A stretch of 63,251 nt of DNA, filler included, from Perkinsus chesapeaki ATCC PRA-425 (GCA_013115145.1; 9 parts of 9 records of this genome joined end to end with filler, not necessarily neighbours in it), one strand, 5' to 3'. Numbered from the whole stretch's first letter, positions 1,462-62,057 are shown. Notes: generated from the sequence alone by a model not told the origin. A program made the numbers and translations.

Positions 1462-3359
1462 CTTTGACAAACTTCAGCCCTTTATTTAGTGGGTGTATGA
1501 CTATTTCATTCAATAATCAACCTCAGGTAAGCATCTTATTGGGGCTTTTTATATTTGGAGCAATATGTGTATACATCAAGCGGCTCTAGCAAGTTTCTTG
1601 TTGACTACCTATCCGAAAGATACCCTACAGCCGTAGCATATGTACTTCTTATTAAGGTCTCACCTTATCGTTGATGGCCTTAATTTAGCGATGTCGTCGG
1701 TGGAGAGAGATATCCTCTATGAGAAGTATCTATCTGCTGGTGGAATGTTGGCATAACTCTATATAAGTTTCATGTTTTGGGTGACGGTTCAGAGGCTAGA
1801 GACTACTAATAGTGTGATCAAATATAATATTCATCACATTATGTGAGGATCCTATCTAATGATAATACCATTATTGAAATGAACTAGTAGGTTACCTGCT
1901 CTAGATTAGTGAAGGCTTTGATCGATGAGGGTAGCTGTATCCTTGCCTTCTACCAGCTTTTTATCTCTATCACATTATAAATCTGTACCGCGGAACAAAC
2001 ACGTGTTGTGTTTCCCCGAAAGTGTGAATATGAGGTGGATACCGAGTCACACGGAAGCAGTTTTACACCCTGACCTGATCAAATGATTGTGAGCACTGAT
2101 TCGTTGTCGTACTGTCTAGAATCAACTTGATTCTAGACAGTGATAGACTTGATTCGCACTCACTTGATTCAATCAAGTGAGTGCCTCCAGTTAATGGACA
2201 CGCTACTTTGAGGCACTATGCTATAGGCCGCGAGGCATCTTCAATCTTTGTGTCATAATGCTACCTACCGCGATGTCTGCCACATGACTACCTCCAGTTT
2301 GACACAGTAAAACGAAACGAAACCTTCCATACAAGCGCAAGGAGTCAGATCACTCTATAAAGACATGGGTGTGCTTAAGTCTCCTCAACGTGCTCATATA
2401 AAAACGACTTGGCTGCTGAGAACAACGTTTATACCGTATAAATTATACGACACTACTGGTATTCCCAGGTCTGAGTTTTAGCGGCGGGATGGAGTGGCTA
2501 CTGTTGTATTAGGTTCCCATGGATTTGGTTTATGTTGAACTCTCAACACACTTAACGAGTGCACGAGGAAGGCGTCGATGCGGGGAATTGAGGCAAGGCA
2601 GCCTGTGATTCCGAGGATGGATGTAGCTTGTCAGCAATCAATGTTTGTGGATGAGATGCTGAACCTTATGTTCGTGACTCTCCCATCGCCGATGGGCCAA
2701 CGGGGGGCTGATGGCTGCCGGTCATTTAGCTGGCGAGGATAGGCTAACCGGCTCCTAGGCTCTCAGTCAGAGGTTTCTTTGAAGGGCATTGGTACTTTTC
2801 CTGGAAAAGTTTCCCGAGGTACTGGTTCCGCTCGCCGTGTTAGCAACACACGGTATTGGGATACTCGTGAAAGTGCATTGAGGGGACTCCCGCTAGCAGT
2901 CCACTGAGCCTTGCTCCACAAATGCCACAAATACCTTTACAGTAAAGGTTTTACTCACATGTAGCTCGAAGTGTGCAGACTATTTTCTGCAAAATGCCGC
3001 TTTGGTGTATATCTGATCAGAATATCCCTGAGCTGTACTCCGAAGATTGAGTAGCATTTTGATCAGAATAACTCTGCTGGTTTACCAGGCACTTCTGTTC
3101 TTCGTACAACACCTTTAGTGAGCACGTGATTGATGACGAATCTATCCATGATAATCCACGCTCATTCGCCATGACAATCCATGATATCTATTCATGACTA
3201 TCTGGCGATGATTCTGTCGATAAAAGTCGACAGATCAATTGCCCACTTGATCAAAATCAGGAGAGTGAGGTTGTCAGAGAGTCGTATGTGAGTCACATAA
3301 TGTGACCATTGATACGACTAGTACGAAACCGAGTGCTGGAGCCTCCAGCCTGGTGGCGT

Positions 3360-3381
3360 GATAGCCCGGCTATCATAGCCG
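3360..3381. other. 22-bp excision scar, X=GATAGCCG
   Basis: GATAGCC CGGCTATC ATAGCCG. Confidence 0.85.
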
Positions 3382-3534
3382 TGACAGGATGAAAATATTC
3401 ACGTCTCATCGTATCGGGGATGAGGATTGTGCGGACTTACAGTAGGTTTGTGCCATAAATACCCCCTATTGGAGCCCAAAGGCTCCTCCCGCAAAGAAGT
3501 CGTCTGAAGCTTGTTGCCGGTTCCCATGATAATC

Positions 3535-3703
3535 TGCACTATAACGCTAGGCAGTGTGGTAAAATGAGACGAGGCTCAATTGTGAGTGCGTTCGGTGCGA
3601 GGCGCCAGCCGTCGATTACCCGATCGATATCTGGGTGTCAGCTGCTACTAGTGCTGGTTGTACGCATGCACCGCGCGCGAGATGTTGAAGTCACTATATC
3701 GCA
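3535..3703 (-). repeat. 3' LTR (169 bp)
   Basis: TGCACT...ATCGCA; differs from 9023-9192 by one substitution and a 1-nt indel. Confidence 0.97.
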
Positions 3704-3705
3704 GG

Positions 3706-3721
3706 TTTCCTCTCTCCCTCC
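3706..3721 (-). promoter_or_regulatory. Polypurine tract
   Basis: GGAGGGAGAGAGGAAA on the minus strand, 2 nt before the 3' LTR. Confidence 0.9.
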
Positions 3722-4225
3722 GAGTCAACGGATGGGATAGAGCTGACCATCAAAACTAGAGACATTAGCAGAACCAGTAGGATCGAATCTCACTGGAGCT
3801 CGTCGAGAACGTCGTACCCGGACCACCACTGTTAGCCGATTCCCAAGAGGTTGTCTGGAAAAAATTCCCAGATACCATAGAGTGGTCAGTTGGAACAGAG
3901 TAAGTCGATAGAGGAGTAGACGAAGAGGAGCTAGAGGTAAAATTGAGAACAGAATGATCATCTGGTGGCGTTGAAGATAACGGGGATATTAGTACTGGTG
4001 GAGTAGCTGGTAGGACATGAATCACATCAGAATCAGCAGCCCGAGGCTGAGACTGTAAAGGACTTGACGCACTAAGTAGACGTTGTGAAGATCGTGTAGT
4101 AGCTAGACCAGGATCAGGATGTAGTTCACGAACATGACGGACAATAACCTTTTTCGCAGGATCGAGTAAAGTAGCTTTCACTCCTTCTGCACTTAGGAGA
4201 ACAGCCGGGAACCATCGAGTGGCTA

Positions 4226-4247
4226 CTTTACAATGTAAAGTTTACAT
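4226..4247. other. 22-bp excision scar, X=CTTTACAT (inside pol)
   Basis: CTTTACA ATGTAAAG TTTACAT. Confidence 0.92.
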
Positions 4248-7200
4248 TGCCGATCGTATCGGCGATCACGACAGTACACGATCTGGCCGGGGCGGAAAGA
4301 CATCGGTGAAGCATTTTCCGTACCGCGAGCTAGTGCCGAAGATCGTCGTTCTTGCAGGATATCACAGATGATTTCCGCGTCTCCCAAATTCCATGTTGGA
4401 TAAACACCAAGACCTGGACGTGGTCGACCAAAGAAGATACAATATGGAGGTAGTTTCGTGATACTGCTTGTAGTGAGCCGTATTTCCCAGAGAACCCCTT
4501 GCAAGACTTCAGGAAAATGTGCAAGGGAAAAGGGATGTGCAATGTAGATCCTACGTAATCGATCCAACAGTGTTCTATTTACTTGTTCTACCGAAGAGAG
4601 AGGTGAGTAGGGTAGAGTTGGACGAAATAGAATACCATGTTGCTGTAAGAATTGCTGAGTCTCAGATCCGGTGAACTCAGAACCTCGATCAGTCATCAGT
4701 ACCGAAAAGGGACCATAGCATGCTACCAGTCCTTTGAGCTTGGTGGTGATAGTATGCGCAGACTTGTCGGGCAACGGGATAGCGAAGACGAAATGGCTGT
4801 GTAGGCAGACTAATACTAGCAACAGTTGCTTAAATGTGGGAGTGCTAACAGAAAGAACATCAGCCGCAATAGTATGCCAACTCCATGGAGGAGCAACTCG
4901 CTGAACTCCCGGCCTATGTTCAGACGCTCGCTGATCAGCTAACTTGCAAGACGAACATGAACCAACATGTTTGCACACAGCGTCGTACATTCCAGGGAAC
5001 CATACCGTCGATCTCAATGTCGACCAGAGTCGGGTAATTCCTGGATGGCGCCGAGATTCATCAGAGTGTAAGATTCTTAAAAGGATAGACACAGCTGAAG
5101 GTGGTAGTAATGGGACTGAGATTGTGTCTCCGATCATCTTTGGATATACCGCTGACACTTTTTTGTAGATTGAACCATCGTGCACGAAGAACGAACTCCA
5201 TGCGCGGCGGAAGGCTGAGCCCGATAGCTGAGGAGGGGGCTGTCGAGCAACCAACGCTTCATATATCGATTTGAGTTCCTCATTGGCTTGTTGATGTTGG
5301 TACAGGCCTAGCAAGTTAGGATCAGTAGGTGGTGCCGTAGTGGATGAAGTCGTCTGAACCTCACTGCTGTCGGTGGGGAAGGACGAAGGGGGAGCTCCCA
5401 CATATGCTGTAGTGATAGATGCAATGATATCTTCGTCGTCATAGCCATCGTCAGTGGTGTCATCGTAAACCTCATCGTTAGAGTCCGAATGATCCTCTAT
5501 TTGTAGTGCAGGGGTCGTTCCGGGGAACCTAGTCGTCAAGGAGTCTTCTAGCTTTCGGATCTTGTTGAGAAGAGGGTGCCTCGTGAGCGCGTCCGAAGGG
5601 TTGTCCTTGGTGTCAATTCGCACAACTCGGATCCGGTAATTGAACTCAGCTTGGTCGTAGAGCGCGTAGGCCAATGCCACATACTTAGAGAGAACGTGTG
5701 AGCCGTCCTTAGCCGACGATTAGGTCGAATGACCAGATTGGAAGGCTAGTTGTGTAGATCGGTTGTCACAGTCAGGAAGAAGATCAAAGGGAATTTCCTG
5801 TGTGACAACCTTTCCCAACGATAAACATGCGCTATTGCGCGGTACATCATGATGGACTCTAAGCAGCATATGGGAAGCTGCGTGTCTCTGGCACGGAATA
5901 CACAGGCATAGCGGTGTGAATCTTGCCCTGCTTGACGGATAACGAAGCCTCCGGCGTGCTTCGCCGCATCTGTGAACACATGCAGCGGCTCCGTGAATAA
6001 TATCAGTAGATAGGCGGAGGCTCAGTGGTCGTGAGCTCGTGCCACTGGTTCAGACACGAAAAGAGCTCACTAGAGACATGTGATCTCCACGGTACATTAT
6101 AACAGGCTCGCTCTCTCGCAAGGATACTTTGCAGATAGTGTTTCATAGCGCTACACCAGGGATGCGCCACAACGGTTTCATCCAGGGAGGCCAAGATACC
6201 GAGACCATCTGAGTAGGTGCATGATGATAATCCGGTGCTTTCGGCTGCTGCTCTCGGAGATCTCTGTCTGAGCTTCTCAATCTTTCCTGGAGGGTAAGTG
6301 ATGGTGTCGCCGTAGTTGCAGTAGTCGATGCCGAGGATGTTTGCTCTGAGTTGTTCACAAACCGCTTGTCGCTTCGATGGTTTCAGAGGCAGGTCGTACT
6401 CTTCGGAAGCTTGCTCCACGCCTTGTTCTAAGGAGCCAGGTCGACTCTCACATAGGGTTATGTCGTCCATGAAACTGCAGACATCACCGTCTGGTTCTTC
6501 CGTCGCCTGCCTTGTTGGTTCTGGGGCACACTGTTTCTCCGCTTGGTCTCGGCCATGTTGCTCCAGCTGCTGTTGTTGAGGTTGCTGCTGCTGCTGAGCG
6601 CTTGCTGCCGTCGACGATATACCTTTGCTTGGGGAGGGGTGTAGGCGCGGGACTAGCCAATGAACGCAGACTTCTAGGCACCGGGGCGCATGTGATGGCC
6701 CATAGGGCATACACAAAAATGAATACACAGCTGCTGAGTTGTCATTTGGTGGTGCTAAATTCACCGTGAAGATATCATAGTTGCTCGGAAGTAATGCTAG
6801 GTGAATGTAAGCATCCGAGAAGTCACGTGTGGTTAGGAAAGGGAAGAACCGAGTCCTGTCAATGAGCTCGTGCTGAAGGTTCTGGAAGAACTTCTCCTGA
6901 CTGAAGAGCTTTTTCAGATGACGGTTCAACCATACGAAGGGAAATACAGGCCTATGTCGACGGCCATCCCCTCCGACGATGTAGTAGTTAGTCGAAGCTG
7001 TAGTTGATGCAGATTTTGCTATTCGGCCTTCCTTCTCCCATCTTGTAAAATATTCCCGAACCGCCGTGAGAGCTTCAGGTGTTGCTTCCAAAAGGCGCCG
7101 GTGACAGCGTTGTGCACTTGTGACAAATTTGTCTTGTAAGTGGTGCAGCATATGAGGGTTGATGCCGACAAAGAACTTCTTCTTGTGGGGATTGAGGATG

Positions 7201-7903
7201 TTTTCCGCTGCACATATGAAGATGATGTTTGTAGAGATGATAGCGTCGAACACCTTCCATTCCGGCGGTAATGATCGCCAGTAAGGTTTTGTAGATGGCC
7301 CGCTGGACGGAAGATCTGACCGAGACGATTCGGCGCCTGGTGAAGACGCCTGTGCTGCCGCTGATGACTCGACATTCATTGATGTAGGGGTACTAGTAGC
7401 TATAGACATAATATTATGAGGTACATTACCATAGGTGAAGAACTGTTGCATGAAGTTCAAACCACCAATAATCGGAAATGCCATTGGCGCTGTTGACAGC
7501 ATGAAGGGGTATTGAAAGTGCATGTCCTGGATCTCGTCAAAGACTATATCGACCAACACCGTGCCGTCAATTTGGAGGTCCTGGCCTGTCAATGACCTGG
7601 CCGAGGCTTTGCACGTTTGTACTGCTTCAGGAGGGATAGACCCCAGTAAGGCTTTGCTTATAGTACTTATTCTAGAGCCAGTGTCGAAGAGAATAGTAGA
7701 CTTGACTTGACATGTCGGTTTACCATGGAATAGTACAGACACAGACAAAGGCGTAGTAGCTGCAGACGAGGTAGCTATGACTCTTTTAAGGCCGCTGTTA
7801 CAGCGAGGAGTCAGAAAAATCTGGGTGGGCCCGCTAAACTGGGAGGTAGAAGGTACCGCAGTAGTAGAAGATGTTGATGGGGGCCTGTCAGCATCATCGC
7901 ATA

Positions 7904-8944
7904 TTAGTTTCCCTTCTCAGTGTTAGCACCCTTCTTCAGCTGCATCGCCCTAGCCTTGGTATTACACTGTTCCTCCGTATGACCAAGGCGAGCGCAATAG
8001 GTACAAGTAGCTCCTGGGGTTGAGAGTAGTCTTGGCCTTGGTGGCTGTCGTGCTTGCAGTAATCCTTGATCTCTTTGTTTCTTCCAACACGAGTCAAGAG
8101 TGTGGTTAGCTTTTTTACAATAGTCACAGCGAATGCCACCAGAGCCGGATGGACCCTTTATAGCCGCTATAAGCTGTGGCAGCCAGGATGGTGGGGCTTG
8201 CTCATCCTTAGCTTGTTCAAATGCAGCTTGTTCCTCGGGTACAGGCTGTAGTTGTTGTTGGTTGTAGAGAGCTGCTTGGATCGCCGGTGAGGTAGGTGGC
8301 AGTGGTGTACCATTGAGGGCCGCGAAGGGGTTGAAGTTGAGGTTATTGGGTAGTCCTACTTGGTGGAACATATCGATCGGCGACCTTGGTGGAGCTAGAG
8401 GTTGGCCATCTTGACTATTGAAGGGGTCTGCCAGAAGGAACTGTGCCCGCTCAATTGCTTGAGCCAGAGTTGCAGGGTTTCTGTTGCGGACCTGCTGTGC
8501 CAGCCTTGGTGAAGCTCCGGCCAAGCCGCGAAAGAACGAGGCAAGCAGAATGGGCTCAGTGTGCTGGACTGGTAAGGTAGGATATGCTCTCTTGATGAGC
8601 TGCTTCAAGTCGTTCACATAGCTCAGAAGGGTTTCGGCACCGGGGTTGAAGTATCTCTGTTGGAGCTTCTCTCCCGAGACGAAAGCGGTTGCAAAGTGCA
8701 TCTTATCCTGCAGGGCTCTAGTAAGTTGGGCATAATCAGCCTTGATGGGTGTGGGCAAGTCTTGATATATTGACCAACAGTCCCCTTTAAGGAGAGGGGG
8801 TAAACTCATAAGCTTTTGCTCATCATTCCACTGGTTAGCTGAAGCGCATGCTTCATATTTGGCTAGCCAACTAGCCCAATCGAGAGAACTGTTCAGTGGG
8901 TCGTAACCCTCAGGTAAGAGCACGTAAGTTGGTGCTGCCGCCAT
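7904..8944 (-). CDS. gag: Gag (346 aa) with two CCHC zinc knuckles
   Basis: CDYCKKANHTLDSC and CTYCARLGHTEEQC; gypsy-type capsid N-terminus (DW..WL..YE..A..N.W); begins 62 nt after the PBS. Confidence 0.92.
   Translation of the reverse strand: MAAAPTYVLLPEGYDPLNSSLDWASWLAKYEACASANQWNDEQKLMSLPPLLKGDCWSIYQDLPTPIKADYAQLTRALQDKMHFATAFVSGEKLQQRYFNPGAETLLSYVNDLKQLIKRAYPTLPVQHTEPILLASFFRGLAGASPRLAQQVRNRNPATLAQAIERAQFLLADPFNSQDGQPLAPPRSPIDMFHQVGLPNNLNFNPFAALNGTPLPPTSPAIQAALYNQQQLQPVPEEQAAFEQAKDEQAPPSWLPQLIAAIKGPSGSGGIRCDYCKKANHTLDSCWKKQRDQGLLQARQPPRPRLLSTPGATCTYCARLGHTEEQCNTKARAMQLKKGANTEKGN
7907..7913 (-). promoter_or_regulatory. -1 programmed ribosomal frameshift slippery heptamer G GGA AAC
   Basis: In gag frame directly before the TAA; the -1 frame is open from here into the protease and is closed by TGA just upstream. 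Confidence 0.85.
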
Positions 8945-9005
8945 ATAGTGTCGATTGCCCGATAACTGGGAGATTGTGTGAGATAACGGGGGCTTTGTTC
9001 AACAA

Positions 9006-9018
9006 GGAGCTGCTACCA
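9006..9018 (-). promoter_or_regulatory. Primer-binding site, probably initiator tRNA-Met
   Basis: TGGTAGCAGCTCC, 4 nt inside the 5' LTR; complementary to a tRNA 3' end ...GCUGCUACCA. Confidence 0.8.
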
Positions 9019-9022
9019 CTTC

Positions 9023-9192
9023 TGCACTATAACGCTAGGCAGTGTGGTAAAATGAGACGAGGCTCAATTGTGAGTGCGTTCGGTGCGAAGGCGCCAGCCG
9101 TCGATTACCCGATCGATATCTGGGTGTCAGCTGCTACTATTGCTGGTTGTACGCATGCACCGCGCGCGAGATGTTGAAGTCACTATATCGCA
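9023..9192 (-). repeat. 5' LTR (170 bp)
   Basis: Near-identical direct repeat of 3535-3703. Confidence 0.97.
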
Positions 9193-9506
9193 AATCTCAT
9201 TGACAAACATTGGCACGCGCGACCATACATAGGTCGACTTGTTGAGCAACAATGAGCAGAACAGGGAAATCCTTGTTGCGCATCCTTTATCATCGCGGAG
9301 ACATCGTGCGAGAAGCGAGGACGAATATGGCCCGCGTCACCAATCCGATCACGCACGCGTGTACATAGAGCCACGCTTCGCCGGATACCCACAGGATTTT
9401 ACTACTAGACACTATATAAGTTTCAGGAGGCCATCGAGAAAGACCGCTAACGATTACTGATGTTCTAACTTAGAACTTCTAAGGGATTTTCGTCTGTCCG
9501 ACAGGC

Positions 9507-9920
9507 ATGTCAATCACCTCCATCACACTTTACACTCTGTTGGTTGCGGTGCTTGAGAGTGTGGTTCCTCCGCATGATGTCTACTGCAGCGACGCTTCCC
9601 TAAGCTTCACCGGAGGTCTTTTCTTTCGCGCATATGGTCCAAACACGTTCCAAATCCTCTACTTTTTGATTTTCCCTCGTCTACTAGAACAAGTGACGGG
9701 GACTATACCCTACAAGGTCAAACCTGATGGATCTACTCTTATGCTAGATACTGCCAATAAGAACTTCACGCAGTTTGCCGACGACATCAATATCGATCCG
9801 ACTACGTGGAATGAGCTGCCGTACAACAGCACTGGTGACTCGTTCAATCTACCTATACGTAAAACACATCACTTGGTGACTCCAAGTAAGTGTCCAACGA
9901 AGATTCCTGGCAGCTGGTGA
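9507..9920 (+). CDS. Small secreted/surface protein (137 aa), paralog 2
   Basis: Same length and Cys positions as 1048..1461. Confidence 0.8.
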   Translation: MSITSITLYTLLVAVLESVVPPHDVYCSDASLSFTGGLFFRAYGPNTFQILYFLIFPRLLEQVTGTIPYKVKPDGSTLMLDTANKNFTQFADDINIDPTTWNELPYNSTGDSFNLPIRKTHHLVTPSKCPTKIPGSW

Positions 9921-10315
9921 CTTCAACACAACTACAAAAGTTGAGCTTAAACTGGCCCAGTGGCTGCCCACTGTACTTGATCCCGAACAGTGGGAGTGAG
10001 AGCAACGTAATGAGCACCTTTGTTGTTGACCAGCTAACTCGAGGGCCGATGTAGCATATCTCGTCCTTCTTGGGGTCCTAGAGGTTCATTACCAAGTACC
10101 TCTTTATCTTTTGTCTTAAGGATAGTGCTTCTTGCTTACATGTTGTATCCTTTCTACATCCTATAATATAATCTACATGGAGTCTGTAGTGATTTTACGG
10201 ATTTTATGGAGATGGTAGCTAATGGTGTGGAGCTAATATCGTATTATTTATAGTTATGATCAGATTAGAAAAGTGATTGATGGCGTTTTGATGCCAGTAA
10301 ATCGTTATTAGACTT

Positions 10316-10337
10316 CATGTTACTAACATGATGTTAG
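10316..10337. other. 22-bp excision scar, X=CATGTTAG
   Basis: CATGTTA CTAACATG ATGTTAG. Confidence 0.85.
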
Positions 10338-10788
10338 TGTTGAGTTAGAGGAAGATGAAGCCTCGGTTCACGATTCCGTCCGCAATCAGCTCGAAGCCGT
10401 ACCGCAACAGGGTCGAAAGGCCGTATTGTTCGATGTTACCATGCAGTAACTAGTGACAAGCACAGTCTTCGATTGGAAACAAATCTATTTGAGTCTTCAA
10501 GTGTTCCTATTTATCACAATGCGACGTAAGGGACGATTATCACCGGAAGTGTTCTTGGAGAACACAAACTCGAATCACATGCTCTACCGAGCTGTTAGTT
10601 AGCCGTCGCTGCCTCAGTGTCTAGCAGGGCGCCGCTCCAATAGTGATTCGCTCCTGTGACTCGATCCTGAGACTCGCAGGCTGCGAGTCACAGAGTAGCG
10701 AAGAAAATTCAACAATTTCTTTTGCCGACCCTTCTGCTCACACCTAATTTACATTACTTAACTGAGGAAGCGAGATGAGAGTTGCTGA

Positions 10789-10810
10789 GTAAGCATTGCT
10801 TACTAAGCAA
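10789..10810. other. 22-bp excision scar, X=GTAAGCAA
   Basis: GTAAGCA TTGCTTAC TAAGCAA. Confidence 0.85.
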
Positions 10811-11439
10811 TACTTCGAAATCTTGCCACTCAGTTATGCATGACAATATTACTCCAGATTGCCCGACTTCATACTAAACTAGTATTACTAGCAGCCAATA
10901 TCAGAATTTGAGTTTATCTGATTTATCAGCGTAAAGATCAAAATTTTTGATTCAAAAAGTGCAGCGCGTTAGAGTAACGAAAAATAGTTTAGATTAACAC
11001 GTTAATTTAACAGTACACGTTTTGGTTACCAATAAAAGTTGAGTTTAGCAATGTGGCATTTTCCTCCTTAAAAACAGATGAGGATATCAGTGAGATTTGA
11101 AGTTACCAAAAAGAGTTGAGATTAACAGAGTCTGACTCTGTTGATAGCAACCGTGTCACCCAGAAAAACGATTAGAACCCCAAGCCTTTTCTTAGGGAGC
11201 CAGCTTGGACTGGGCTACTCTGTCACTAACCGTCGAAGCATCAATTCGCTGCCAGGAAATAATGTGTGATTGCGAGGGAGTTGGTCCGTACTCAGGCGAT
11301 AGGCAGTGCCTGTTAGGCACCATCGTGGCGCCGCCATGCGCCACCATGATGGATCATGGCTTTCACGTGTTGTGGGTCCAGATTGATCCCCACAACTTGC
11401 TATATTCCTGATTTCCCCACAACCTATAATGTCCCGAAG

Positions 11440-11461
11440 GACACTAGTAGTGTCACACTAC
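11440..11461. other. 22-bp excision scar, X=GACACTAC
   Basis: GACACTA GTAGTGTC ACACTAC. Confidence 0.85.
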
Positions 11462-11999
11462 TATTTCCCGAAGGGCCCTCTGATGTATTAAACTTTCGCC
11501 ATTCCCTCTATAGCTGTCGAGCCCAATATCGATTAGTTTCGCAGAGTAATTGTGTTTGCGTACACATAGATTGGTGCAGAACTTAAGTGCGGTTAGTGCG
11601 CTTATATCTATTGTCCCAGGGTCGTAGTATTGGTATTCTGGCTCAAGCTGCTTTGTTGTGTTATTCTTAGGATTTCATCAGCTGATACCGCGACACACGT
11701 CGTGAAATTCACGAACGTCACATTCCACCCCTCTACAGTGGACTCCACCCCTCCACTGAGTGGAGGGGTGGAGGATGGAGGTGAGAAGTGGAGGCTCCAC
11801 TTCTCACCCACATGTCACAGATGGTGTCAACATCATTCATCTTGATCTACATTGTCATAGCTGCTGGGCATGACCAACTGAAAGATGCTTTCGACAATTT
11901 CAAGACATTGAGCGGTACTATACTTGACGCTGCGAGGACGTGCCGCACGGCCTCGCAATTATTGGGACGGCCCGTGCCAATTTAGGTCTGCCTTAAGGT

Positions 12000-13250
12000 A
12001 TGGCATATACACTCGAGGAAGAGGAGGAACACCTCGAAAGGTTCATATCCGACGTCAAGCGAATAGCTGCTCTTGGAAGTTTGCGCTCTGATGGGCTAGA
12101 AGAGCTATTCATTAAAAGCAGACCCGCTCTCATGCAAAGCGAGCTTCGGCGAGCTTTGAATGAGCGAGCTTCGATGCTCGAGTTCACTTCAGGGAGTGTG
12201 CTGACGTTATCAGGAATGTGCGGTGAGTCGTTTATAGCGCGGGACCATATATCCCGAAGTATGCCTTGTTTCTGGACTCCTCAGAGACCAAGGCAGGTGC
12301 AATAGCTTTGCAATAGTTGCAATAGCTGCTACTTTTTTTTGACCGTTCATGTATAAGCACCAAAGGAAGGTTTAAACAACATCTCTCTGCGGGTTATATT
12401 ATCGGCTGCTGCAGCTCCGCTGAACCTTCGAGTGGATGCACTCGGTGAGTAGCCATTCCTCAGGCTTTCGTGCGACGTTCAGAGGCTTTCTTGCTCAGAA
12501 AGCCTGGCTGCCCCGACGGTGGAGCCTGCTGAGCTCTGGCAGTTCATACAGAAAAATGGAATCCCCACTGGTACGTGAAGTCATCTTCGTCCGCAAGTCT
12601 CCTCTCGGATCAAATCGTATGTGATTGAGATGCTCAGGTGGGAACTATTCGCCCAAATTGGGCGAATCCAGTGGTTGCTGGCCATATGACTATCGACCAT
12701 GTGACCACGCACCGACGAACCCTTCCCTCTTAGGGTATACCCCCTGGAAGACTCTAGTAAGGAACCAACGATCAAGCTTGCTTTCTTTGATGTGTTTACA
12801 TATTAGCCAATTTCCAAGTTACTAACTTGCAAGACGAAGTGCCCCAATAGTAAATACAAAACTCAACTTAGAAAGTACTTGATGTGATGTGTGGGGTATC
12901 AGCATTGCAGATTATGTGCGTTCAGTGATTTGCACTTTGTGGATGAAGTAATCTCCCTCCCTAAGGACATCAACGCGATCAAGGAGGCAATCTATAAGGG
13001 GGGACCGGTGAGGAGTTCGCGATAACTTCCGACGAAGCTTCGCTTGAGGCGACATTTGACTCGATTGATCTGAAGTTGTTATAAAAGTCGTACACTTTTG
13101 CAGGTAATGGCTGACTTTTTAGTCCGGAACGATCTTTATTGGAAAACGAGATTTACTGGAACTTCCTTGGTTTAGTCTGGAGTTAGTAGTGGAACGAGCA
13201 ATGGGGTGATTTCGGTCGCGTCAGGGTGGCCCTCGGTCAGTGTCGCATAG
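12000..13250 (+). pseudogene. Cathepsin-B-like (papain C1A) pseudogene or inactive homologue, multi-exon; boundaries approximate
   Basis: Exon peptides ESFIARDH/YPEVC..LRDQGRCNSFA..DRSCI, GGNY..GCWPYDYRPCDH, CKTKCPN, IKEAIYKGGPV; catalytic Cys replaced by Phe (12307-12309); +1 frameshift near 12248; no HAV motif found. Confidence 0.75.
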
Positions 13251-14427
13251 AAGAGAAAATGACGTATGGGATCCCTAAAGTTAGTAGATAAACATTGCTG
13301 TCCCGCTCAGGAGCACCGTACTGATTTTGTGCTTTCTATGTAGCTGGTAGCTATGGTGATATTATCACCGTGATAAGCCAATATCTTATCAGTTATTACT
13401 TCAAATAGATTAGTGAGGTAACTGTTGGTACTTTGATGCCAGTAGTTCGTTAGTGGGCCCTATGTTATTAATAGTCGGTCAGTGTTGGGAACTCAACATT
13501 GAAAGATTACATGTAGTTGTAGGTGATCCCACCGATTGGTTTCCGATGATCTGCTAGCCTACTTGAATGCGGCTCTGAATCCCTTTTATGCTAAGAGTCT
13601 TAGCCTAAGACCCTTTCATATCATGTGGCCACACACATCTCCCGGGTCGGGAAGGATTGGGCAAAGTATCAGACATGACGGGACCGCAGCGCATTGCTAC
13701 GCCACAGCTCAGTATTTCTTCGATAGATGCAACCGTTACCTGTTTGTTCCGTCTCGCGCTGCATGCATGTACACGTATCTTATTGAGCGTTTCTCTATGA
13801 CGCGCACCGCCATTGTGTCCCGGGCGAGCCACTCCCTCTGTCCGTACGGGTTTTACTAACGCGACACTCCGTTTGCTCACATCTACTGTAGAAGCCGTAC
13901 CGGAACCTTTATTGGCGAATCCGGCGGGACGTAAGATGAAGCAGATTGCCTGTACGGCTAAGGTTAGGACCGTTATAATAACACCCGTGTCCGGTGTAGT
14001 GACTACACCGGACAAGGGGGTCTGGACAAGGGCAACAGGAACAACTTGTTCCTGTTGCCGTCTTGTTCCGAACAAGACGGCAACAGATGCGCGATTCTGT
14101 GCGCACGGTGATGGGATGCAAATTTCGCCCGCCCTGTTATATAACACAAACCGTTTCGTATTTGACCTTGTCCTTCAAGTATGTATTACTATATGTTCAA
14201 AACTTGCCGCCCTTCAAATTTCAGAACAAAACTCAAAATTGGCTGAGAAATAATTTTTTCGCGATTTGCCTAAGGAAAATGCACGGTCCTTAGAGCCTCT
14301 AAGTTAGAGGTCTCCTTCCTTGTCCATTCCCCAGGGTAGAGGCGGCGATTTCAAGTACTAGTGGAAACTCAATGACCATTTTCGCTTTATTTAACAACCA
14401 GACAGTGTGAGGCATGCGTTTGACATA

Positions 14428-19928: not shown

Positions 19929-20020
19929 ACGATAGAATCATTCATAGTTGGTTGCGATGCTGAGAATTATAGTGCAAGTAAATTAAGGAGAGGATTGTCA
20001 ATGTTGATATTGAAAAAGTG

Positions 20021-47462: not shown

Positions 47463-47484
47463 AGCGGGACTCCCGCTGCGGGAG
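47463..47484. other. 22-bp excision scar, X=AGCGGGAG
   Basis: AGCGGGA CTCCCGCT GCGGGAG. Confidence 0.85.
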
Positions 47485-49200: not shown

Positions 49201-49607
49201 CAGTGTCGGCTGCTGCTTGCTGAACACTCACTGACCATACCGGATGATGGAAGTGGTCGAAGACCTAATTAAAACGAATCAGCCCACTTGTAATTGGGTA
49301 CCCATGCCATAACTCGCTTCGTCAATTCTGCCGCCATCCACGAATAAGTTGTACCTGACATGGCCCACACTAGGCTCATCAAGGCAAAGAGAACGTACCA
49401 GCGAAAGGGCCCTTCGGTTTAGGTTCAATGAGCGATGGCATTCACCGCAAGCCAGCTCGATCGGCCTCCTCTAGGGCGAGCTGGGCGGAATATCCTCAAG
49501 TTGCTATCTGAAATCCGAGCTCCACCCGCACCAGTGGGGACTCCCCACTGAACAAACTGTCCCTATAGGCTCGGGCTCAATCTCACTCTCAGCTTGTGAG
49601 AAGACCG

Positions 49608-49629
49608 CTTAACAGTGTTAAGTTAACAC
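49608..49629. other. 22-bp excision scar, X=CTTAACAC
   Basis: CTTAACA GTGTTAAG TTAACAC. Confidence 0.85.
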
Positions 49630-49964
49630 TTAGTCGGGAGTAACTTATTAAGCTTCTGATCTAGTTTGCCGGTAAAAAACTCGAAGTTGAAGCCCACTAG
49701 ATCTTCCGTTCATTTGCAAACAGCTCTGAAAACGAGAGGTTACCGCATATGCAAAGAAACTTGAAGTAATCAAAAGCCCTCACAAAAAGAATAGCATTGA
49801 ATCGAACCGGCGACCTCCGGATCAGGATACTTGGATGATTCCCAACTCAGCTAGCAATCCCATGNNNNNNNNNNNNNNNNNNNNNNNNNNNNNNNNNNNN
49901 NNNNNNNNTTAATTAATTAANNNNNNNNNNNNNNNNNNNNNNNNNNNNNNNNNNNNNNNNNNNN

Positions 49965-51830
49965 TACTATACTGTGGAAAGGCCCAAGTTTTAAGCTGGC
50001 GGTCCCATCCAAGCGAGTAGATCTCCTGAAGTAGACCTCCTGTTGCCATACACCGTGCGGCACTTACTTCGAACTCTCTATTTAAAACCTTTCCCCCGGC
50101 GGCAAGGGCATGTATCCCAGCAAGATGAGCAAGGCTAACTCTACTCAACACAATCATCCTTTTAATGTCACTAACAACCAGGTCCTGATCGTCGCCGCCA
50201 CTAACCAGGTGACCTACACTAAATTGAAAGTCCAACTCAATACGCTCCGTACCCTTGCTGGTCCACGCCAACGCATTCACACCGGCCGCGTGCACAGGAA
50301 GACATTTCCGGTCATCCAAACGTACAAGGTTGCCATCTGCGTAGCCCGCTACAGAAGGCCAGCCGGTTTCGGATGGGCCACATGTCACAGCCAGGCAAGC
50401 GCTACTGCGGTGGTATCTACAAAGCACTTCGACCGATCGTTTTGATAAGACCCACATTGAACTGAACTGCAGACTCCTAGGCTCCCCATGGCCGCTCCAT
50501 ACATTGCCCGCGCTGTCACCAAGAATAACAGATGGCATCTGATAAGAGAAGCCTGCCGAAAATCCATCACCGTTTGTAACCTACGTGGGCGGCAAGCGTG
50601 ATGTCGGCGGCCATGATTCGGGCGCTCTCTACCCCTTCCTGGTCCAGCATCATCATACCGCCGTTTTCAACCCACAACGAAATACCGCCATTCTCATCGG
50701 TGATGACTCGGTAGAGAAACCATTGGCTCCTTGCTCCGCCGGATACCACAAATTCGTCACATGAAGCTAAAAATCGACAACAATATTCTGAATACTGTAC
50801 AGGTACGGCGATGGTCTATTTGCGTTGATTTCTCTCGTTGTGAATCCTCTTCGTGGCAACGCATCACCACTATCGATGATGTCCCATTCAATTTATCACC
50901 AAACAATCATCCTGTATCGTCCAGCCTGCCAGGCTTCGTCAGTCCTGAAATTCCCTTGTCGAACCGTGCGCGCAAAAAAATATAGAGAACTGCAACCATT
51001 GATTTTCCTGGTCAAGACCTTGAGCAAGTCAGAGCTGGGTAGAAGAAGGCCTAGTTGGGTAGTAAAGCTTAGTGAGGCTTACTACTGGCTATACGCTTTT
51101 ACTGAGGGCATGATGGCTCAAAGGCTTGTCTAGTGCGAAGATGGTACGCGAGAGGAGAATGAACCTTCGAATGAGTTTCCTTCTAGTTGTGATTTTCTAC
51201 TGCCTCTTTTTCTTGTTACTTAAATGATCACCAGAGACGACCCCTGTTCCGAGAGCTTTGGTGTACACTACTCACCAAGGCATTTAACTGGTCCAATATG
51301 AAGGTCCAACGTTTGAGTGCATCGCCAATCATCACCAACTTGAGAATCTTCTATCTTTGAAGGCGTATACAGCTTCACACTGTTGTCTTCAGAACAGGTA
51401 ACGAAGGACCTAAACCAATAAGTGCGTGGGGACACATTGTGTCACTACCTGTCCCCAACAGCACAAACTCCGTGGATCATCCTGCCATGGTCACCTCCGA
51501 ATTGCCGATCGTCTGTTGCCCAGGAGCTGCCGTCCACTAAACGAAGGATAGCCGTCAGAGACCAAAGTCAGGAATGCATTTTTCCATGTAAGAAGATCTT
51601 GCTTTCTCCCACATTGAAAAGGACTCATTCTCAACGTTCTCGACGCGACATGAAAAACGCGTTTCTGCGAGCTTACCTTTTGCCAGAGTAAATGTCCAGT
51701 TGGCAGTATCAGCATACACTAAGGTAGCTTCACCGTTATCAAAGGCGAAGTCATAAGGCCGACGTTGGCCGCCACAATCAACCTGCAATACATTCTCAGT
51801 TCTTCCGGGATCAGCAATAAGAAGCATCCG
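49965..51830 (-). CDS. WDR6: WD40-repeat protein, WDR6/Trm734-like, partial between gaps
   Basis: VDCGGQRRPYDF (compare WDR6 NCGGGHRSWAF), HAAGVNAL, LVSGGDDQ, AHLAGIHAL, YSLGWDRQLKTW. Confidence 0.7.
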
Positions 51831-54800
51831 AGCGACAAGGTTTGCTACCCACGGTTGGTGTTATCAAATAGGAAGATATTACTGGTGACTCAGCGGAGCC
51901 TTGAAAGCTACTCACCGATTCAGTGTGACAAAACATATTTCCTATCAAACTCCTTTCTATTATATCTCCTCCTCCGTATCACTAGTAACATATTTCCTAT
52001 CAAANNNNNNNNNNNNNNNNNNNNNNNNNNNNNNNNNNNNNNNNNNNNTTAATTAATTAANNNNNNNNNNNNNNNNNNNNNNNNNNNNNNNNNNNNNNNN
52101 NNNNTCTCTCTGTAATCCAATGACTGGTGTTGATAGTGAAACTGAAGAGCAAATTAGGAATCAGAAGACCGATTCGGGCGATCAAACGGTACACCTTGTC
52201 CCCTCGTCCCCTCGGCCCCATTGTATTAGGGGACCCCTAAGGGTAAAATGCGACACATACCTCGCGGACCTGATTGTCGGATATTCACTTGGATGCATTT
52301 CACTCGGTTGGGTTTGGTCTCGGTTTCTGTCCAAGATAAAGGTCTGCCTTTGTCGCAGTTGAAACCTTCCCATGAGGGGACATTCTACACAATCGAAGTA
52401 GATCAAGCTACTAGCGTCAGAAATCTGGCATCTACGTTCCGACAGTGATGTGTTGTCAATTAACGGTCAGACTGACAGTATCAGTGATCAGTCATTCCTA
52501 AGTCGTTAGTTAGTCTCCAGCGCCGTGCTGCTTCCCTGCGGAGACGCGTGGGTCGCGCCGGCAGCTTACAAGCTTTGCTTTGAACGTGATCAAAACCCAC
52601 CGCTCCCTCCCTACTAAAAACAAAACCAAAGCTTCGGGGAGCATTGACTTGCCTAAGTTAGAGAAGAGTCAGTGCGACACTTGGTGACGGCCTGATGGCG
52701 CGGGACGTTTTAGCGCCCGGGTGGCCCAATTTGTTCTGGCGATGCGCCATCTGTCCCTTCAGGTTCGGGTCGAACCTTCCGGTGTCACTCAAGTCTCAAC
52801 TCCCCAATCCCCGAAGCCAGAGGTTTCAGAAGGCAACACCAAACGAATGCGTGAAGTACATAAAAGTGACATCTGTGGGAGTTGAACTCGTGCAGCACCA
52901 AAGATACTCCGAGTCGCAGTCAGAGAAATTTGCCTAACGCATTCGTGTGAGCCTCGCAATTTTCGCCAGACGTCCGTTAGCTAGTCGAGTTGGCTAAGGG
53001 TTCTGCTTTGCCTGCAATAGGTTCTAAGTTTAATCCCGATTTGCTTCTTTTTTCGACATCGATAATTTTTTTGCTGTAGCGAGCTCAGCTGCTGAACGCA
53101 CTCAACTTGTCTGCTGGTCAATCTCATCAACCGACTGATTTTGCGCACTATCGACAATTCTAAAGATTAATTTAAATTTTACATTTTGAATCATCCAAGA
53201 GGATGGTAGGATCGAACCTGATATCTTTAGGTAGAAAGATGTGCTACGATTCACTTCCACAAGTTACGGTAATTGAGTTAGTAACTTGGTTACCCCTTCA
53301 CGATTGGGGCAAGCAAGCCTTGCTCAGCAAGGCATTATTGTATTGTGACACAACACATTACAGGCTGCGTGCTCCAGCATGTAGCAGCCGCCTTAAGGCT
53401 TGACAAGCCTTGATAGGCTCTTGATTAGGCTGCACCAACCAGCTGGCACTTAATTGATTGTCCGTAAATAAGGGACCGTTATTGATAATGTTCCTTGTCC
53501 AGCCTGGTTGAACAAGGAACATTATCAACCTGGTTGAACATTATATGGTTGAATCAACCATAGTGTACCCGTCATGAGGCAACTACTACAACTCTAGGTA
53601 GTTAGTCGGGACTGTGAGATAGGACGAATAACCTGCGAACTCGATGCCCGAACACCAACCACAAGGTGCTACTTGTAGGCTGAGATATCACTGGCAATTG
53701 GTCGCATTAGGGATATTGAAGTACTGACAAATATAAGTCCAGTCACAGCCATATATGTCAGTGACATAACAGTGCAAATCCAAACATGCACTAATGTCCC
53801 CCGACCAACCTTGAGAAAAAATACGCGCATACGGGTGAAGATGCTGACGTTCCAAGCACAAAACCGAAAACGGAAACCCGGAGTCGCTCATAGTCTGATA
53901 TGCCCATAAACGGGTGAAGAGGCGCGCGACGCTCCCTTCCTGCATTCTGCGATCACAGGCTTGACCTTGCTCTCTTACGATACCTTCACATAACCCTGCG
54001 AGAGCATTACTCAATGTGACTTGGTACCAAAGAATTGTGCAAGAAACGGTTCTCAGTAGACATTCTGATGATCCAAAAATACTAGAACCGCCACACATGT
54101 CACAAATAATCTGTGACCACCGCTGTCTATCTTGGTCACACATTCGCAACTTGCTAATATACAGAAAGATATCATCAAGCAATGAACAGGCCCCATTACA
54201 TACAAATAATAGGTAGGCGCATGCCCGTAGTGACCTTGTTTTGTTCACCCGCACAGGCCAAGCAAATTGCTTGAAGCAAGTTGTGTGCTCGATGTGACAC
54301 GGTGCCTGTCCATTTGCCAAACTTGCAAGTCCCGTGCAGCACGGGAGAAGTTATAGAACCAATGAATGTGTGACCCAATGCGTGTCTATACGACAGCGCT
54401 GGGCTGGGCGTAACCCGACCGTCGTTATATGTCCCGGCTTGAGAGATAATACACCTGTGTTATGAGAGCTCCCACATTATGTGGGCCACATATCCGTCAC
54501 AAGTGGGTCGTGACAGCCGCTTTGTCTCTATCTTGGTCATGTACAAGTAGGCTGCTACTTTACAAGCTGTTACCTTTCAACAACGAGCAGACACCGATGC
54601 ATGCGACTCATGAATTGGCGCAGGTGATGTGTAAGTTTCACAGTGAAACTGCATGTTGTTCACCCGCACAGGCCAAGCAAGTTCTGTGCTGACATTGTTT
54701 CACTGCCGCAACGCACACTCCTGTCTCCGTGTAACTGTCTAATTCGCGCAAGGGAGTAGGAGGTATTCAGGACATTATAGTGAGAGGCGAATCGACTGGT

Positions 54801-59217: not shown

Positions 59218-59710
59218 CGTAATGAGGTTTCAATCGTGATTACAGTTTTGCGTACATGAGCTAATCAACACAAAGCATCCTGATAAAAATAAATGTGTCT
59301 GTCTCGTCTGTCGGACCCTTCATGAATCTTCTTTTTCAGCTTTTGAACGACTAAAAGACCCCGTTGCCTCCATAACGTCTCGAATGATATAGCAACGTAC
59401 TTTTAGTGCGAGTCAAACAGGCATCGTTGTTAACGCGTTATCAATGTTACCGCTTTGCGTTGTATGATATGCGTTTTACACGAGTGTTCCGCACATGGAG
59501 GTGAAACTTATCTACATTGAAGTGAAGCGATACACCGGTGCTCTATTGACAGCTTTAAACTACTCAGAACACCACAAAGCATCATTGAACAGAAGTAGAA
59601 GTATAGTTGCTCCCTACGGAGAACTTGAGCAAGGAAAACGAAAATTCATCTTTTGCAAAAAAACGATAGAGCCGATCGTTCATCCGAAGAACGAGAAGCT
59701 TTAAAGACGC

Positions 59711-60202
59711 TTAGCATCTGGTAACAGTAGTATCAATAAGGAAGCCAATCTTAATATGAACATCATTGGAGTCAACGATAGTAGCATCAACACTATCAAT
59801 GTTCATCATATGCATCAATTTAGTGAGAGTTGCATCATAGTTATAGAAATCCATCTGGTTACCATTAATCTTGTAATCAGCATGCATGGCCATTCCCATA
59901 ACGCTGATAGTAGCGTGACCGTTCTCAAAATCAACCTTGAAGCTCTCACCCATCACATTGCCGCAGAACACACCTCCGAAAGGAGCAGCCGTAGTAGTAG
60001 TTGCCTTCTCAGTTGTAGTGCTAGCCGTAGTTGATGTGGTGGTGGTAGTCGTCGTAGTGGTGGAGGCTATAGTTGTAGTTGTTGTAGTAGTGGGAGCCTC
60101 AGTAGTAGTTGTGACCGCCTTGGTGGTAGTGGTAGCAGCTTCGGTTTGTTTGTTTGTTTGTTTGGGTGGCCTTGCCGACCGCCATAGTGGCAGTATTCGG
60201 CC
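59711..60202 (-). CDS. Mucin-like Thr-rich surface protein, C-terminal part (5' end unclear, near gap)
   Basis: About 55-aa Thr-rich tract followed in frame by an 86-aa domain bracketed by two Cys. Confidence 0.75.
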   Translation of the reverse strand, partial: GRILPLWRSARPPKQTNKQTEAATTTTKAVTTTTEAPTTTTTTTIASTTTTTTTTTSTTASTTTEKATTTTAAPFGGVFCGNVMGESFKVDFENGHATISVMGMAMHADYKINGNQMDFYNYDATLTKLMHMMNIDSVDATIVDSNDVHIKIGFLIDTTVTRC

Positions 60203-60899
60203 TTAGCGCCACACGGAGCTAGCTCCGTAGATATGTTGGTNNNNNNNNNNNNNNNNNNNNNNNNNNNNNNNNNNNNNNNNNNNNTTAATTAATTAANNNN
60301 NNNNNNNNNNNNNNNNNNNNNNNNNNNNNNNNNNNNNNNNGACTAGTAAACCATGAGCAGTGCCGTCTACGAAAGTATTGCTTTCAAACCAGCGAAAATA
60401 GGGAAGACCACCAAGGGAACATCGGTTAACGTCCAATCTGTTCACTTTTTACTAATTACATTTCTTATTGTACCAGAGCTAAAACGAGTACATGGATGCG
60501 CTGATAGGATACGATAATTTCTTGACGGTGTACGGATATCTGCTGCAATCATAATGAATATGAATCATATCCATCATGATTTGAGCAGACATTGTTGGGT
60601 AACCCAACTTGGGTTAGTGACCCTTGGTCATCTCGTTTCGGCATTTTGCACGCATGACATGTGACATATCAGATAGTACCACAGTACCACCACTATTCGT
60701 GGATGACTACTATCAGATCACTCAGACAGAGCAACTCACGCTTCCTCTTCGCAGCTGCTCTGGACGCTGAACCTACGTTTATTGAACAAGGATGATCCAA
60801 CACGACAGCTCTCCCTCAATCTGTCGGCGGGGTCGTGGTCGATGCTCCATTAATACTAGCAGTAGATAATGGCTGGCTTTGGCTTGAGGCTTCGCAGAC

Positions 60900-62057
60900 C
60901 AGGGCTCGTATGCGGATCCTGATTCCCCAGTTGAGTTAGCTCAGCCTGTGAGTTAGACTCATGAGCTTACTCAACGTGTGATTCACTGAATCTGAGCTTG
61001 AGTCGCTGGTTCTGAGTCACTAACTCTGAGACGAACAATCAAATCTTGAGTTAGAATCAGAGTCATTGAATCAGCTCACTCACTCAATCAAACAAACTCT
61101 TGACTCGATACAGCGGATCATGAGACAGTGGCTCAGAGTTTGAGTCATAGACGCAAGATCAGAGTCAGCGAATCGCTCCTTGAGACAATGACTCGCAACT
61201 CAACCACCTCATGAGCGGACTCGGGAGCCGATTCAAGAATTTGATTCACACACTCGCTGATTCACTGAATCACACATGTTTCAGTTCTGAATTATGTACC
61301 GGGGGTTTTCGTGGACGGCACAGACTCAGAGTCTGATTCACCACCCTGATTCGGTGATTTAGCGCTCGCCCAAATTCAGCGACCTGTCGCATGACTCCTG
61401 TGACATGTACAGTACATTATGTACTGTGACATGTACACCTATGCATGGCAAGTCGCCATTGGCAACAGAGTCATTCGATCGAACAGAGCCTATGATAGGC
61501 TGCCTATCGGCGCTATATTCGTATTCAAAGTACCCGACGTACTGTAGCTCTCAAAATGCGCTGCGTAGGATTGCTTTGGTCGAAGTACATGATGGCGAAA
61601 TCAGTTTTGATCGCATGCATTTTAGGGTCGGAACGCGGTAGCATTAAAGTACAATAACTTCAGTATCTTGATTGAAATTGCCAAGTATGGGGATTCATAC
61701 AAATTGTATCATGCAGTGGAATACATATCCATACAACGCACAATTTCAGTGAAATAATCGTGTAAAATGTCTGCGCCGGGGATCGAACCCGCATCGCAGT
61801 AGGTCGAATCGGATTCAGTGACTCTGGGTGAGCTTCCCCATTGGGAAATCCCCAAATCCGTTAGTGATTCGCCGAATCTGATTGCGCGATTTATGAGTTG
61901 AATAACTCATTCGAACTGATTCGGTGATTCAGTGGTGATTCGTTAGATCTGAGTTGATGCGGGAGAATCTGAGTAGAGAATCACTGAAATCGGAGGGTCA
62001 ACTCACTGAGTGAGTTGATTGCCTGAGCATTTACTCAAACTCAGCCCCCGAATGATT
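60900..62057. repeat. Arrays of short TGAGTC/TGATTC/GAATCA motifs (60900-61390 and 61800-62057); possible DNA-transposon subterminal region
   Basis: Dozens of copies in both orientations; starts with hAT-like CAGGGCTCGTATGC; right end lost in gap. Confidence 0.55.

Follow-up and report, generated by a model that had tools for sequence, protein, structure and literature searches.

A 22-base scar built on an 8-base core recurs across a Perkinsus chesapeaki window and probably records transposon excision

Scars and elements in the window

The window is the whole stretch of DNA analysed here, 63,251 nucleotides, filler included, from Perkinsus chesapeaki ATCC PRA-425 (GCA_013115145.1), in which nine parts of the genome are joined end to end. 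Perkinsus is a shellfish parasite. The window harbors a Gypsy-type LTR element with RT and integrase, whose terminal repeats are 98.8% identical over 172 bases, and a reading frame with a FLYWCH zinc finger (E 4e-8; 28 of 30 atlas hits) that is cut by a contig end. This frame may be a fragment of a Mutator-type transposase and points to a candidate Mutator-type family in the genome. Two weak tests found longer relatives neither of the Gypsy integrase nor of the FLYWCH frame; the latter had no match in metagenomes or among solved structures, and a high-copy repeat of the window gave 0 matches in metagenomes.

3533..9192, minus strand: Gypsy-type LTR element, holding one scar
46372..46767, minus strand: FLYWCH reading frame, candidate Mutator-type transposase fragment

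The window is marked by a scar of 22 bases in forward-reverse-forward order, which consists of bases 1-7 of an 8-base core X, the reverse complement of X and bases 2-8 of X. This observation is real and larger than first described. The original prediction cited 13 perfect scars and 7 with one mismatch and offered the count as a lower bound. All 20 lie where they were placed, the 7 differing by one substitution each, and the full scan yields 27 perfect scars, 21 with one change and 17 with two. Counted as the minimum distance to a perfect scar with overlapping sites merged, distances 0, 1, 2 and 3 hold 27, 21, 17 and 19 sites against shuffle means of 0, 0, 0 and 7. With middle-copy scoring of the full window, sites at core length 8 number 27 without a mismatch, 17 with one and 19 with two, compared with 0, 0 and 0.2 in ten block shuffles that preserve dinucleotides. 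The same scan gives one perfect site at core length 7 and 0 at lengths 9-13, so that the proposed core-length test, run on the window, shows a sharp peak at 8 only. As claimed, each scar has its own core (65 different cores among the 65 sites at distance 0-2). The density of about 1 per 960 non-N bases is three times the 1 per 3 kb originally estimated, and the 65 scars amount to 910 added bases or about 1.5% of the window. The scars are listed below without strand; all come from the pattern scan, and further evidence is named where it exists.

2428..2449: perfect scar
3285..3306: perfect scar; contigs of both samples bridge
3360..3381: perfect scar; contigs of both samples bridge
4226..4247: perfect scar in the Gypsy pol gene, frameshifting; frame test, related copy minus 14 bases
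9462..9483: perfect scar; sample contigs
10316..10337: perfect scar with gapless paralog at 13370-13495; paralog alignment
10789..10810: perfect scar
10937..10958: perfect scar
11440..11461: perfect scar, weak single-core paralog in run X2; sample contigs
13355..13376: perfect scar; sample contigs
13590..13611: perfect scar; sample contigs
14289..14310: perfect scar
20021..20042: perfect scar; sample contigs
22187..22208: perfect scar; sample contigs
22392..22413: perfect scar; sample contigs
33178..33199: perfect scar, DIRS-like region
33848..33869: perfect scar, DIRS-like region
40075..40096: perfect scar
40221..40242: perfect scar
41000..41021: perfect scar
42667..42688: perfect scar
42876..42897: perfect scar
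47463..47484: perfect scar
49608..49629: perfect scar
54471..54492: perfect scar
60594..60615: perfect scar
61487..61508: perfect scar
2682..61855: 21 one-change scars of 22 bases (shuffle mean 0), starting at 2682, 2934, 3335, 10666, 11299, 29282, 31619, 31725, 31822, 34154, 37841, 40708, 41887, 47494, 48425, 53311, 54259, 54628, 61404, 61445 and 61834
874..54345: 17 two-change scars of 22 bases (shuffle mean 0), starting at 874, 1413, 2795, 10871, 11317, 21610, 27851, 30552, 31379, 31803, 34138, 43579, 46915, 47202, 52464, 53461 and 54324

Palindromes with a one-base loop and arms of at least 7 are the sole enriched loop class (110 against 5.4 in shuffled sequence); loops of 0, 2 and 3 occur 5, 7 and 7 times against 6.0, 4.0 and 2.8. 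Close pairs of centres number 33 at a spacing of 7, while every other spacing up to 30 has at most 5. In 27 of 32 scars each of the two centres complements the terminal base; one centre is changed in the remaining 5, and the base itself is found in 0 of 32, which bears out the claim made for the centres. No site at core 8 fits the even (RAG-type) or the 5'-opening geometry, and the even palindrome scores 0 at all core lengths 5-11. Two-sided pairs number 33 at core length 8, 1 each at 6 and 7, and 0 at 9 and 10. The scar had also been called near-invariant. This holds for 27 of the 33 perfect two-sided products, which are the 22-mer, but the other 6 are longer variants. In six long variants the 8-base duplication is preserved without change on either side of inserts of 22-62 bases (0 in 10 shuffles), and extra fold-back copies are present inside long variants.

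896..965, no strand: long variant, 8-base duplication, inner fold-back copies, centres 55 apart
2119..2177, no strand: long variant with filler, tail lengths 15 and 14 bases, centre spacing 44; single-core relatives minus 51 bases
11736..11765, no strand: long variant, centre spacing 15, within a compound site that extends to about 11808
14038..14076, no strand: long variant, tail lengths 14 and 17 bases, joined not at the duplication but through a different 8-base microhomology (junction read from sequence)
44158..44209, no strand: long variant with filler, tail lengths 11 and 11 bases, centre spacing 37
46806..46857, no strand: long variant, compound site, short arms (4 and 4), centre spacing 37

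Gene-dense stretches hold few scars (0 in 55422-60240 and 4 in 14401-27800), whereas densities of up to 2-3 per kb occur in other parts of the window. Scar decay is graded, and one decayed scar is common to two duplicates that are 86% identical (1413 and 9872).

Single-core versions of scarred sites

The scars are insertions at a single 8-base site, as had been proposed. Evidence for this comes from the reading frame of the Gypsy element and from empty versions of two sites. When 14 bases are removed at 4226, runs of 490 and 152 open codons in the Gypsy pol frame become continuous, and removal of 12, 13 or 15 bases makes no such join. Thus, the scar breaks the pol gene of a young Gypsy retrotransposon, in line with the frameshifting effect ascribed to the +14 product. 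Frame tests on the other 43 scars gave no join comparable to that at 4226.

Alleles were compared at 27 scar sites in assembled public contigs of two samples from two studies (four runs); the two samples are very similar and one is possibly the window's own source. At least nine perfect scars are bridged with zero differences by contigs of both samples, which counts as at most one independent confirmation because one sample may be the source of the window. At 4226 an empty version, with exactly 14 bases missing and a single core, is present in three of the four runs, which cover both samples, at depths of 68/173, 68/200 and 26/62; it was not seen in run X1. Since this empty copy also carries about 8 substitutions nearby, it is a relative and not a proven ancestor. 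The long variant at 2119-2177 has an empty version, 51 bases missing and a single core, in all four runs. One loose end at 11440 (run X2) agrees, weakly and in a tandem-like context, with a diverged paralog that has one copy of the 8-base core. Single-core versions thus amount to 2 clear and 1 partial case among the 27 sites compared. A counter-case is 10316, where the paralog at 13370-13495 aligns without a gap across the scar; it is of equal length, matches only the left half of the scar pattern and is neither empty nor a clean scar. Of the two states that allele comparison had been expected to reveal, the empty single core was therefore found at two sites, but no transposon-filled allele was among the matches listed for the 27 sites in at most two very similar samples.

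A probable route through excision, hairpins and annealed tails

We consider it probable, at roughly 0.7, that the marks are 14-base insertions left at a single 8-base site after a cut-and-paste transposon with an 8-base duplication, probably a hAT element, excised and the host mended the break. hAT elements form hairpins on the flanks upon excision, and a one-base offset of the flank cut is part of Hermes biochemistry. The centres of Ac/Ds footprints, the complement of the base adjoining the element, agree with this offset in the cited passages of PMC5873905. Insertion of the element would duplicate X, and on excision the transposase would cut one base into each flank and seal a hairpin that carries, as its loop base, the complement of X's terminal base. 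The host would then open each hairpin on the 3' side, far from the tip, to leave long 3' tails. Because both flanks hold X, the two tails would always share eight complementary bases over which they could anneal; trimming of the flaps and filling of the gaps would yield X1-7, the reverse complement of X and X2-8. It had been suggested that both hairpins open about 8 nt from the tip. Such precision is unnecessary, because in a toy model the 22-mer results from any tails that are at least about 6-8 bases long (in 98-100% of draws when both tails have this length), and the long variants imply tails of 10-17 bases. The 22-mer may thus be an attractor product that requires long tails but not a precise cut, and the longer variants might arise when tails pair elsewhere or when fold-back synthesis extends them. 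The process would have been active over a long time, until recently.

Tentatively, Perkinsus might open hairpins only far from the tip, perhaps without an Artemis/Pso2-type tip nuclease though Ku and Lig4 are kept, which would make excision repair near-deterministic. Loss of classical end joining as the cause of the uniformity is rejected for now, because a published table credits the congener P. marinus with Ku70, Ku80 and Lig4 (PMC6635534, Table S1, where Artemis is not an entry); the cited passages of a Perkinsus CRISPR paper hold nothing on Ku70, Ku80 or Lig4 (PMC8062965). Short Ac-type footprints form no clear class in the window, with one-base-filler forms at 3 against 6.0 and 10 against 6.5 in shuffled sequence. 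Non-periodic tandem duplications of 6 bases number 21 against 12.3 (shuffle maximum 17), with T..A ends in 1 of 21, and those of 8 bases number 5 against 1.05 (maximum 4). At most about a dozen short-footprint events could be hidden among these duplications.

The attribution to hAT, as originally predicted, stands in part. The core length of 8, the complement centres and the single-core versions speak for it, and the base lean of the cores may do so too. Judged against the whole-window base background, T at position 2 and A at position 7 occur in 38 of 88 cases (p 3.6e-4; 45 of 96 in a second count), a lean that would fit that of Hermes, nTnnnnAn in the cited part of PMC10368747. However, only 12 of 48 cores match at both positions, and on the same background positions 3/6 show an equally strong bias (48 of 96), which lies outside the Hermes motif. 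No filled allele was among the matches listed, no hAT domain was found in 288 reading frames of the window, a search of the window for TIR elements with an 8-base duplication gave 3 weak matches, none convincing, and the FLYWCH fragment is present. It is conceivable, if unlikely, that the same hairpin-and-anneal route served a Mutator-type (FLYWCH-MULE) element or some other family outside hAT that makes an 8-base duplication (Merlin, Dada or Zisupton-like). The frame at 46372-46767 would suit such an element, since Muta1 combines an N-terminal FLYWCH domain with 8- or 9-base duplications and flank hairpins; yet its excision is more than 90% precise in yeast (both from the cited passages of PMC5499845), and MULE duplications span 8-10 bases while scars at 9 or 10 number 0, although a single strictly 8-base family would be compatible. 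Merlin-related frames (PMC8101967) and Dada elements (PMC3706591) have been reported from P. marinus, but the Perkinsus Merlin copies come without identifiable ends or duplications (PMC8101967), and Dada makes 6-7-base duplications in tRNA/snRNA genes (PMC3706591). The T2/A7 lean, by its fit to hAT, may argue against these families.

Without any transposon, a perkinsid enzyme might make an 8-base staggered cut whose ends are filled by seven bases, sealed to their own 5' ends as hairpins, opened and annealed into the fixed +14 scar. To our knowledge no enzyme makes 8-base staggered cuts followed by self-capped hairpins. This geometry would yield the identical product, and the lack of a filled allele among the matches listed is consistent with it, but the weak palindromic T2/A7 bias and the fixed length of 8 are ordinary traits of a transposase. 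We regard it as quite improbable, and the milder idea that Perkinsus opens hairpins only far from the tip as likelier. Were the enzyme reading true, a transposon-free mutator would have written about 1.5% of the window's DNA and would frameshift invading retrotransposons. Iterated fold-back (template-switch) synthesis in replication or polymerase-theta repair, independent of any duplication, might explain the extra fold-back copies in long variants and the equal-length paralog of 10316, which matches the left half of the scar pattern alone, a result to be expected of a local rewrite. It is disfavoured and very improbable, since it leaves the fixed core of 8 and the centre spacing of 7 without reason and does not account for the exact 8-base duplication around inserts of 22-62 bases. 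A library, amplification or assembly artefact is hardly credible: the comparison used assembled contigs, and one sample is possibly the window's source, but identical scars occur in contigs of two samples from two studies, decay is graded, the duplicates at 1413 and 9872 share a decayed scar, and gene-dense stretches are avoided.

Comparison with known excision systems

As a rule, the footprints that excision leaves are so short and variable that they go unrecognised in a genome. With 14 constrained bases per product, each past excision would be findable, countable and roughly datable from sequence alone, and the scar core would reveal the target preference of a transposase even once the element is gone. 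Excision repair would also be a measurable source of non-coding growth and frameshifts (65 scars, 910 bases). The question raised is why this eukaryote, with Ku and Lig4 on record for its congener, would resolve hairpins almost solely via long tails. Assays for reversion of a coding sequence would likely miss the +14 product, because it is out of frame. No description of the scar signature in Perkinsus was found in the literature searched, which was mostly non-subscription and included no Perkinsus genome paper.

Several systems share parts of the proposed route, as far as the cited passages go. Coding joints of V(D)J recombination and Transib also involve a flank hairpin opened by the host (PMC6900584), but their exact-boundary cut predicts an even palindrome, found 0 times at core 8 in the window. 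In mPing the target duplication likewise supplies the pairing that guides repair (PMC4561436); there the empty site is restored, whereas pairing in Perkinsus would be between inverted tails and adds 14 bases. Muta1 (a MULE of Aedes aegypti) resembles our case in its flank hairpins, a possible 8-base duplication and the FLYWCH domain, as in the window fragment; it differs in having 8 or 9 bases against strictly 8 in Perkinsus and in its mostly precise excision in yeast (PMC5499845). Hermes, a hAT element, shares the 8-base duplication, has an nTnnnnAn lean that the Perkinsus cores may follow, and forms the flank hairpin proposed here (PMC10368747, PMC6900584), while the Perkinsus cores carry the extra position-3/6 bias. 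The P-nucleotide footprints of Ac/Ds (hAT) in plants, S. cerevisiae and C. albicans are likewise palindromic insertions, with the complement of the base adjoining the element at their centre, joining guided by microhomology and arms of up to 20 bases in yeast (PMC5873905, PMC1978519, PMC4561436). According to the same passages, however, Ac/Ds footprints vary in type and are for the most part short (28 types among 128 Candida clones, longest arm 3). In Perkinsus one long product makes up 27 of the 33 perfect two-sided scars, the whole duplication would serve as microhomology, and the scars are fixed in a natural genome at about 1 per kb. The chemistry is known, while the product is unusually uniform and dense.

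A 22-base scar with an 8-base core

All 20 sites named in the original prediction fit the description of a scar in the window scan, i.e. bases 1 to 7 of an 8-base core, the reverse complement of the core and core bases 2 to 8. A full scan of the window by core length shows a sharp peak: 27 scars are perfect with a core of 8, one with a core of 7 and none with cores of 9 to 13. Ten dinucleotide-preserving shuffles gave no perfect scar at core length 8. The window contains 27, 21, 17 and 19 sites at distances 0, 1, 2 and 3 from a perfect scar, and four shuffles contain 0, 0, 0 and 7. The 65 sites at distance 0 to 2 have 65 different cores. They correspond to about one scar per 960 bases and have added 910 bases (1.5% of the window), in a window made of nine short contigs that may be more repeat- and scar-rich than the whole genome; contig order across the 100-base N linkers carries no meaning. 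Repeat-rich stretches reach 2-3 scars per kb and gene-dense stretches 0-0.3 per kb.

Over 76% of its length, the ZIP transporter frame at the window end matches a Perkinsus chesapeaki protein with 100% identity, and relatives at about 70% occur in P. olseni and P. marinus. The window further holds a Gypsy element and these features:

31252-39150, fragmented DIRS-like retrotransposon with reverse transcriptase and tyrosine recombinase frames; 10 scars
28527-29144, Tc1/mariner-type helix-turn-helix transposase fragment
46372-46767 (-), FLYWCH zinc-finger frame, truncated by the contig end
11505-11696, very high-copy repeat with a sharp right end; summed contig depth about 30-300 times the single-copy level
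30360-30566, tandem repeat of 39 bases, 5.3 copies
55422-55542, tandem repeat of 43 bases, 2.8 copies

A compound scar (46806-46883) lies about 40-90 bases upstream of the FLYWCH frame.

Palindromes with a one-base loop are the only enriched loop class (110 with arms of at least 7, against 5.4 in shuffled sequence), and those with loops of 0, 2 or 3 bases stay near background. Neighbouring palindrome centres lie 7 apart in 33 cases. When the centre bases were left free, the complement of the core's terminal base stood at both centres in 27 of 32 sites and the terminal base itself in none, as originally described. Ac/Ds footprints have the same arrangement, being centred on the complement of the element-adjacent base (excerpts of PMC5873905). 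Neither the even geometry that a RAG-type cut should give nor that of 5' hairpin opening was found at core 8 in the window. Four one-base-loop palindromes with arms of 9-13 (11133, 12657, 14001 and 62008) have neither a partner nor a core copy within 120 bases; possibly they arose from one side only, after resection of the other end.

Six more palindrome pairs keep the exact 8-base relation with their centres 15-55 apart. Such long variants were absent from ten shuffles, and from the window at core length 9 or 10. In four of them the tails reach 10-17 bases. Those at 14038-14076 join at another 8-base microhomology, and other variants contain filler with fold-back copies. Thus, the scar that had been called near-invariant is dominant, at 27 of 33 perfect two-sided scars, but not invariant. 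Short footprints are a minority at most.

Empty alleles and the age of the scars

We compared contigs of two samples, each from a different study, with positions 2000-9000 and 9200-23000, which cover 24 canonical and three long sites. At 4226, a version lacking exactly 14 bases and retaining a single core occurs in three of four runs and in both samples (depth 68/173, 68/200 and 26/62); this empty copy has about 8 further substitutions nearby. The scar lies inside the pol gene of the Gypsy element, a copy with 98.8% identity between its terminal repeats. If the 14 bases are removed, two open stretches of 490 and 152 codons become continuous; removing 12, 13 or 15 bases does not have this effect. 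For the long variant at 2119-2177, related copies in all four runs lack 51 bases and show one core only, the letters between being marked as not known in the alignment. A single 8-base core is thus exchanged for the scar, which adds a net 14 bases at one site and 51 at the long variant. At 11440, one loose end is compatible with a diverged empty paralog. In both samples, contigs run through at least nine perfect scars with no difference, evidence against an assembly artefact, although the two samples are nearly identical and one may be the window's own source.

The scar at 10316-10337 has a 70%-identical paralog (13370-13495) that aligns across it without gaps. This paralog shows neither the empty state nor a clean scar; it agrees with the left half of the pattern and differs in the right half. 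Loose ends in the comparison suggest that other copies resemble this paralog. This may be either an old scar that was rewritten in other copies or a rewrite of the same length. A 231-base stretch (10182-10412) is missing from another copy or haplotype in all four runs, and no duplication is evident at its ends.

Two duplicates with 85.7% identity over 433 bases share a decayed scar (1413 and 9872) that has one and the same core in both, and scars are therefore older than that duplication. Scar-making is both long-running and recent, as shown by decayed scars that old duplicates share and by a fresh one in a young retroelement.

Proposed joining of hairpin ends

In Hermes biochemistry the first cut is offset by one base. 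hAT transposases make an 8-base duplication and leave hairpins on the flanks (excerpts of PMC10368747 and PMC6900584). The scar has the geometry of two hairpins with one-base loops, each read out on its 3' side. We infer that both hairpins would be opened by the host far from the tip, and that the two 3' tails, which always have the duplication's 8 complementary bases in common, would anneal there. In a toy model that joins tails at their longest shared stretch, 98-100% of draws gave the 22-mer when each tail had at least 6-8 bases, up to 30, the longest tried, and none did when both tails were 2 bases or shorter. Since the same 22-mer results over this wide range, opening about 8 nt from the tip, as originally proposed, is unnecessary. 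A nuclease of the Mre11 type, cutting at a distance from a blocked end, would have the polarity needed for long tails. A loss of classical end joining in Perkinsus is contradicted for P. marinus: Table S1 of PMC6635534 marks Ku70, Ku80, Lig4, Mre11, Rad50 and the POLA/POLQ group as present and Rad52 as absent, in a gene set that does not cover Artemis; the main text does not mention Perkinsus.

Source of the scars and comparison with known systems

Membership of the scars in the hAT family is likely but unproven, because neither a filled allele, with the transposon between two cores, nor a transposase was found: no filled allele was among the matches listed for the 27 sites compared, and no hAT domain among 288 window frames (20 + 119 + 149), a scan that omitted most of the short frames within the two retroelements as well as one other frame. 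The cores lean towards T at position 2 or A at position 7 (38 of 88, p 3.6e-4; 45 of 96 in a second count), as do Hermes targets (PMC10368747); an equally strong lean at positions 3/6 (48 of 96) is absent from the Hermes motif. A Mutator-type (MULE) transposase might be the source instead, given the FLYWCH frame in the window. According to excerpts of PMC5499845, Muta1, a FLYWCH-bearing MULE, also forms hairpins on the flanks and duplicates 8 or 9 bases, but more than 90% of its excisions in yeast were precise.

We found no published account of this signature in Perkinsus, in literature of incomplete coverage that included no Perkinsus genome paper. The process resembles excision of Ac/Ds or Hermes with subsequent joining guided by microhomology. 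What differs from the published hAT footprints compared, as far as the excerpts describe them, is that one long product predominates and has become fixed at about 1 per kb.
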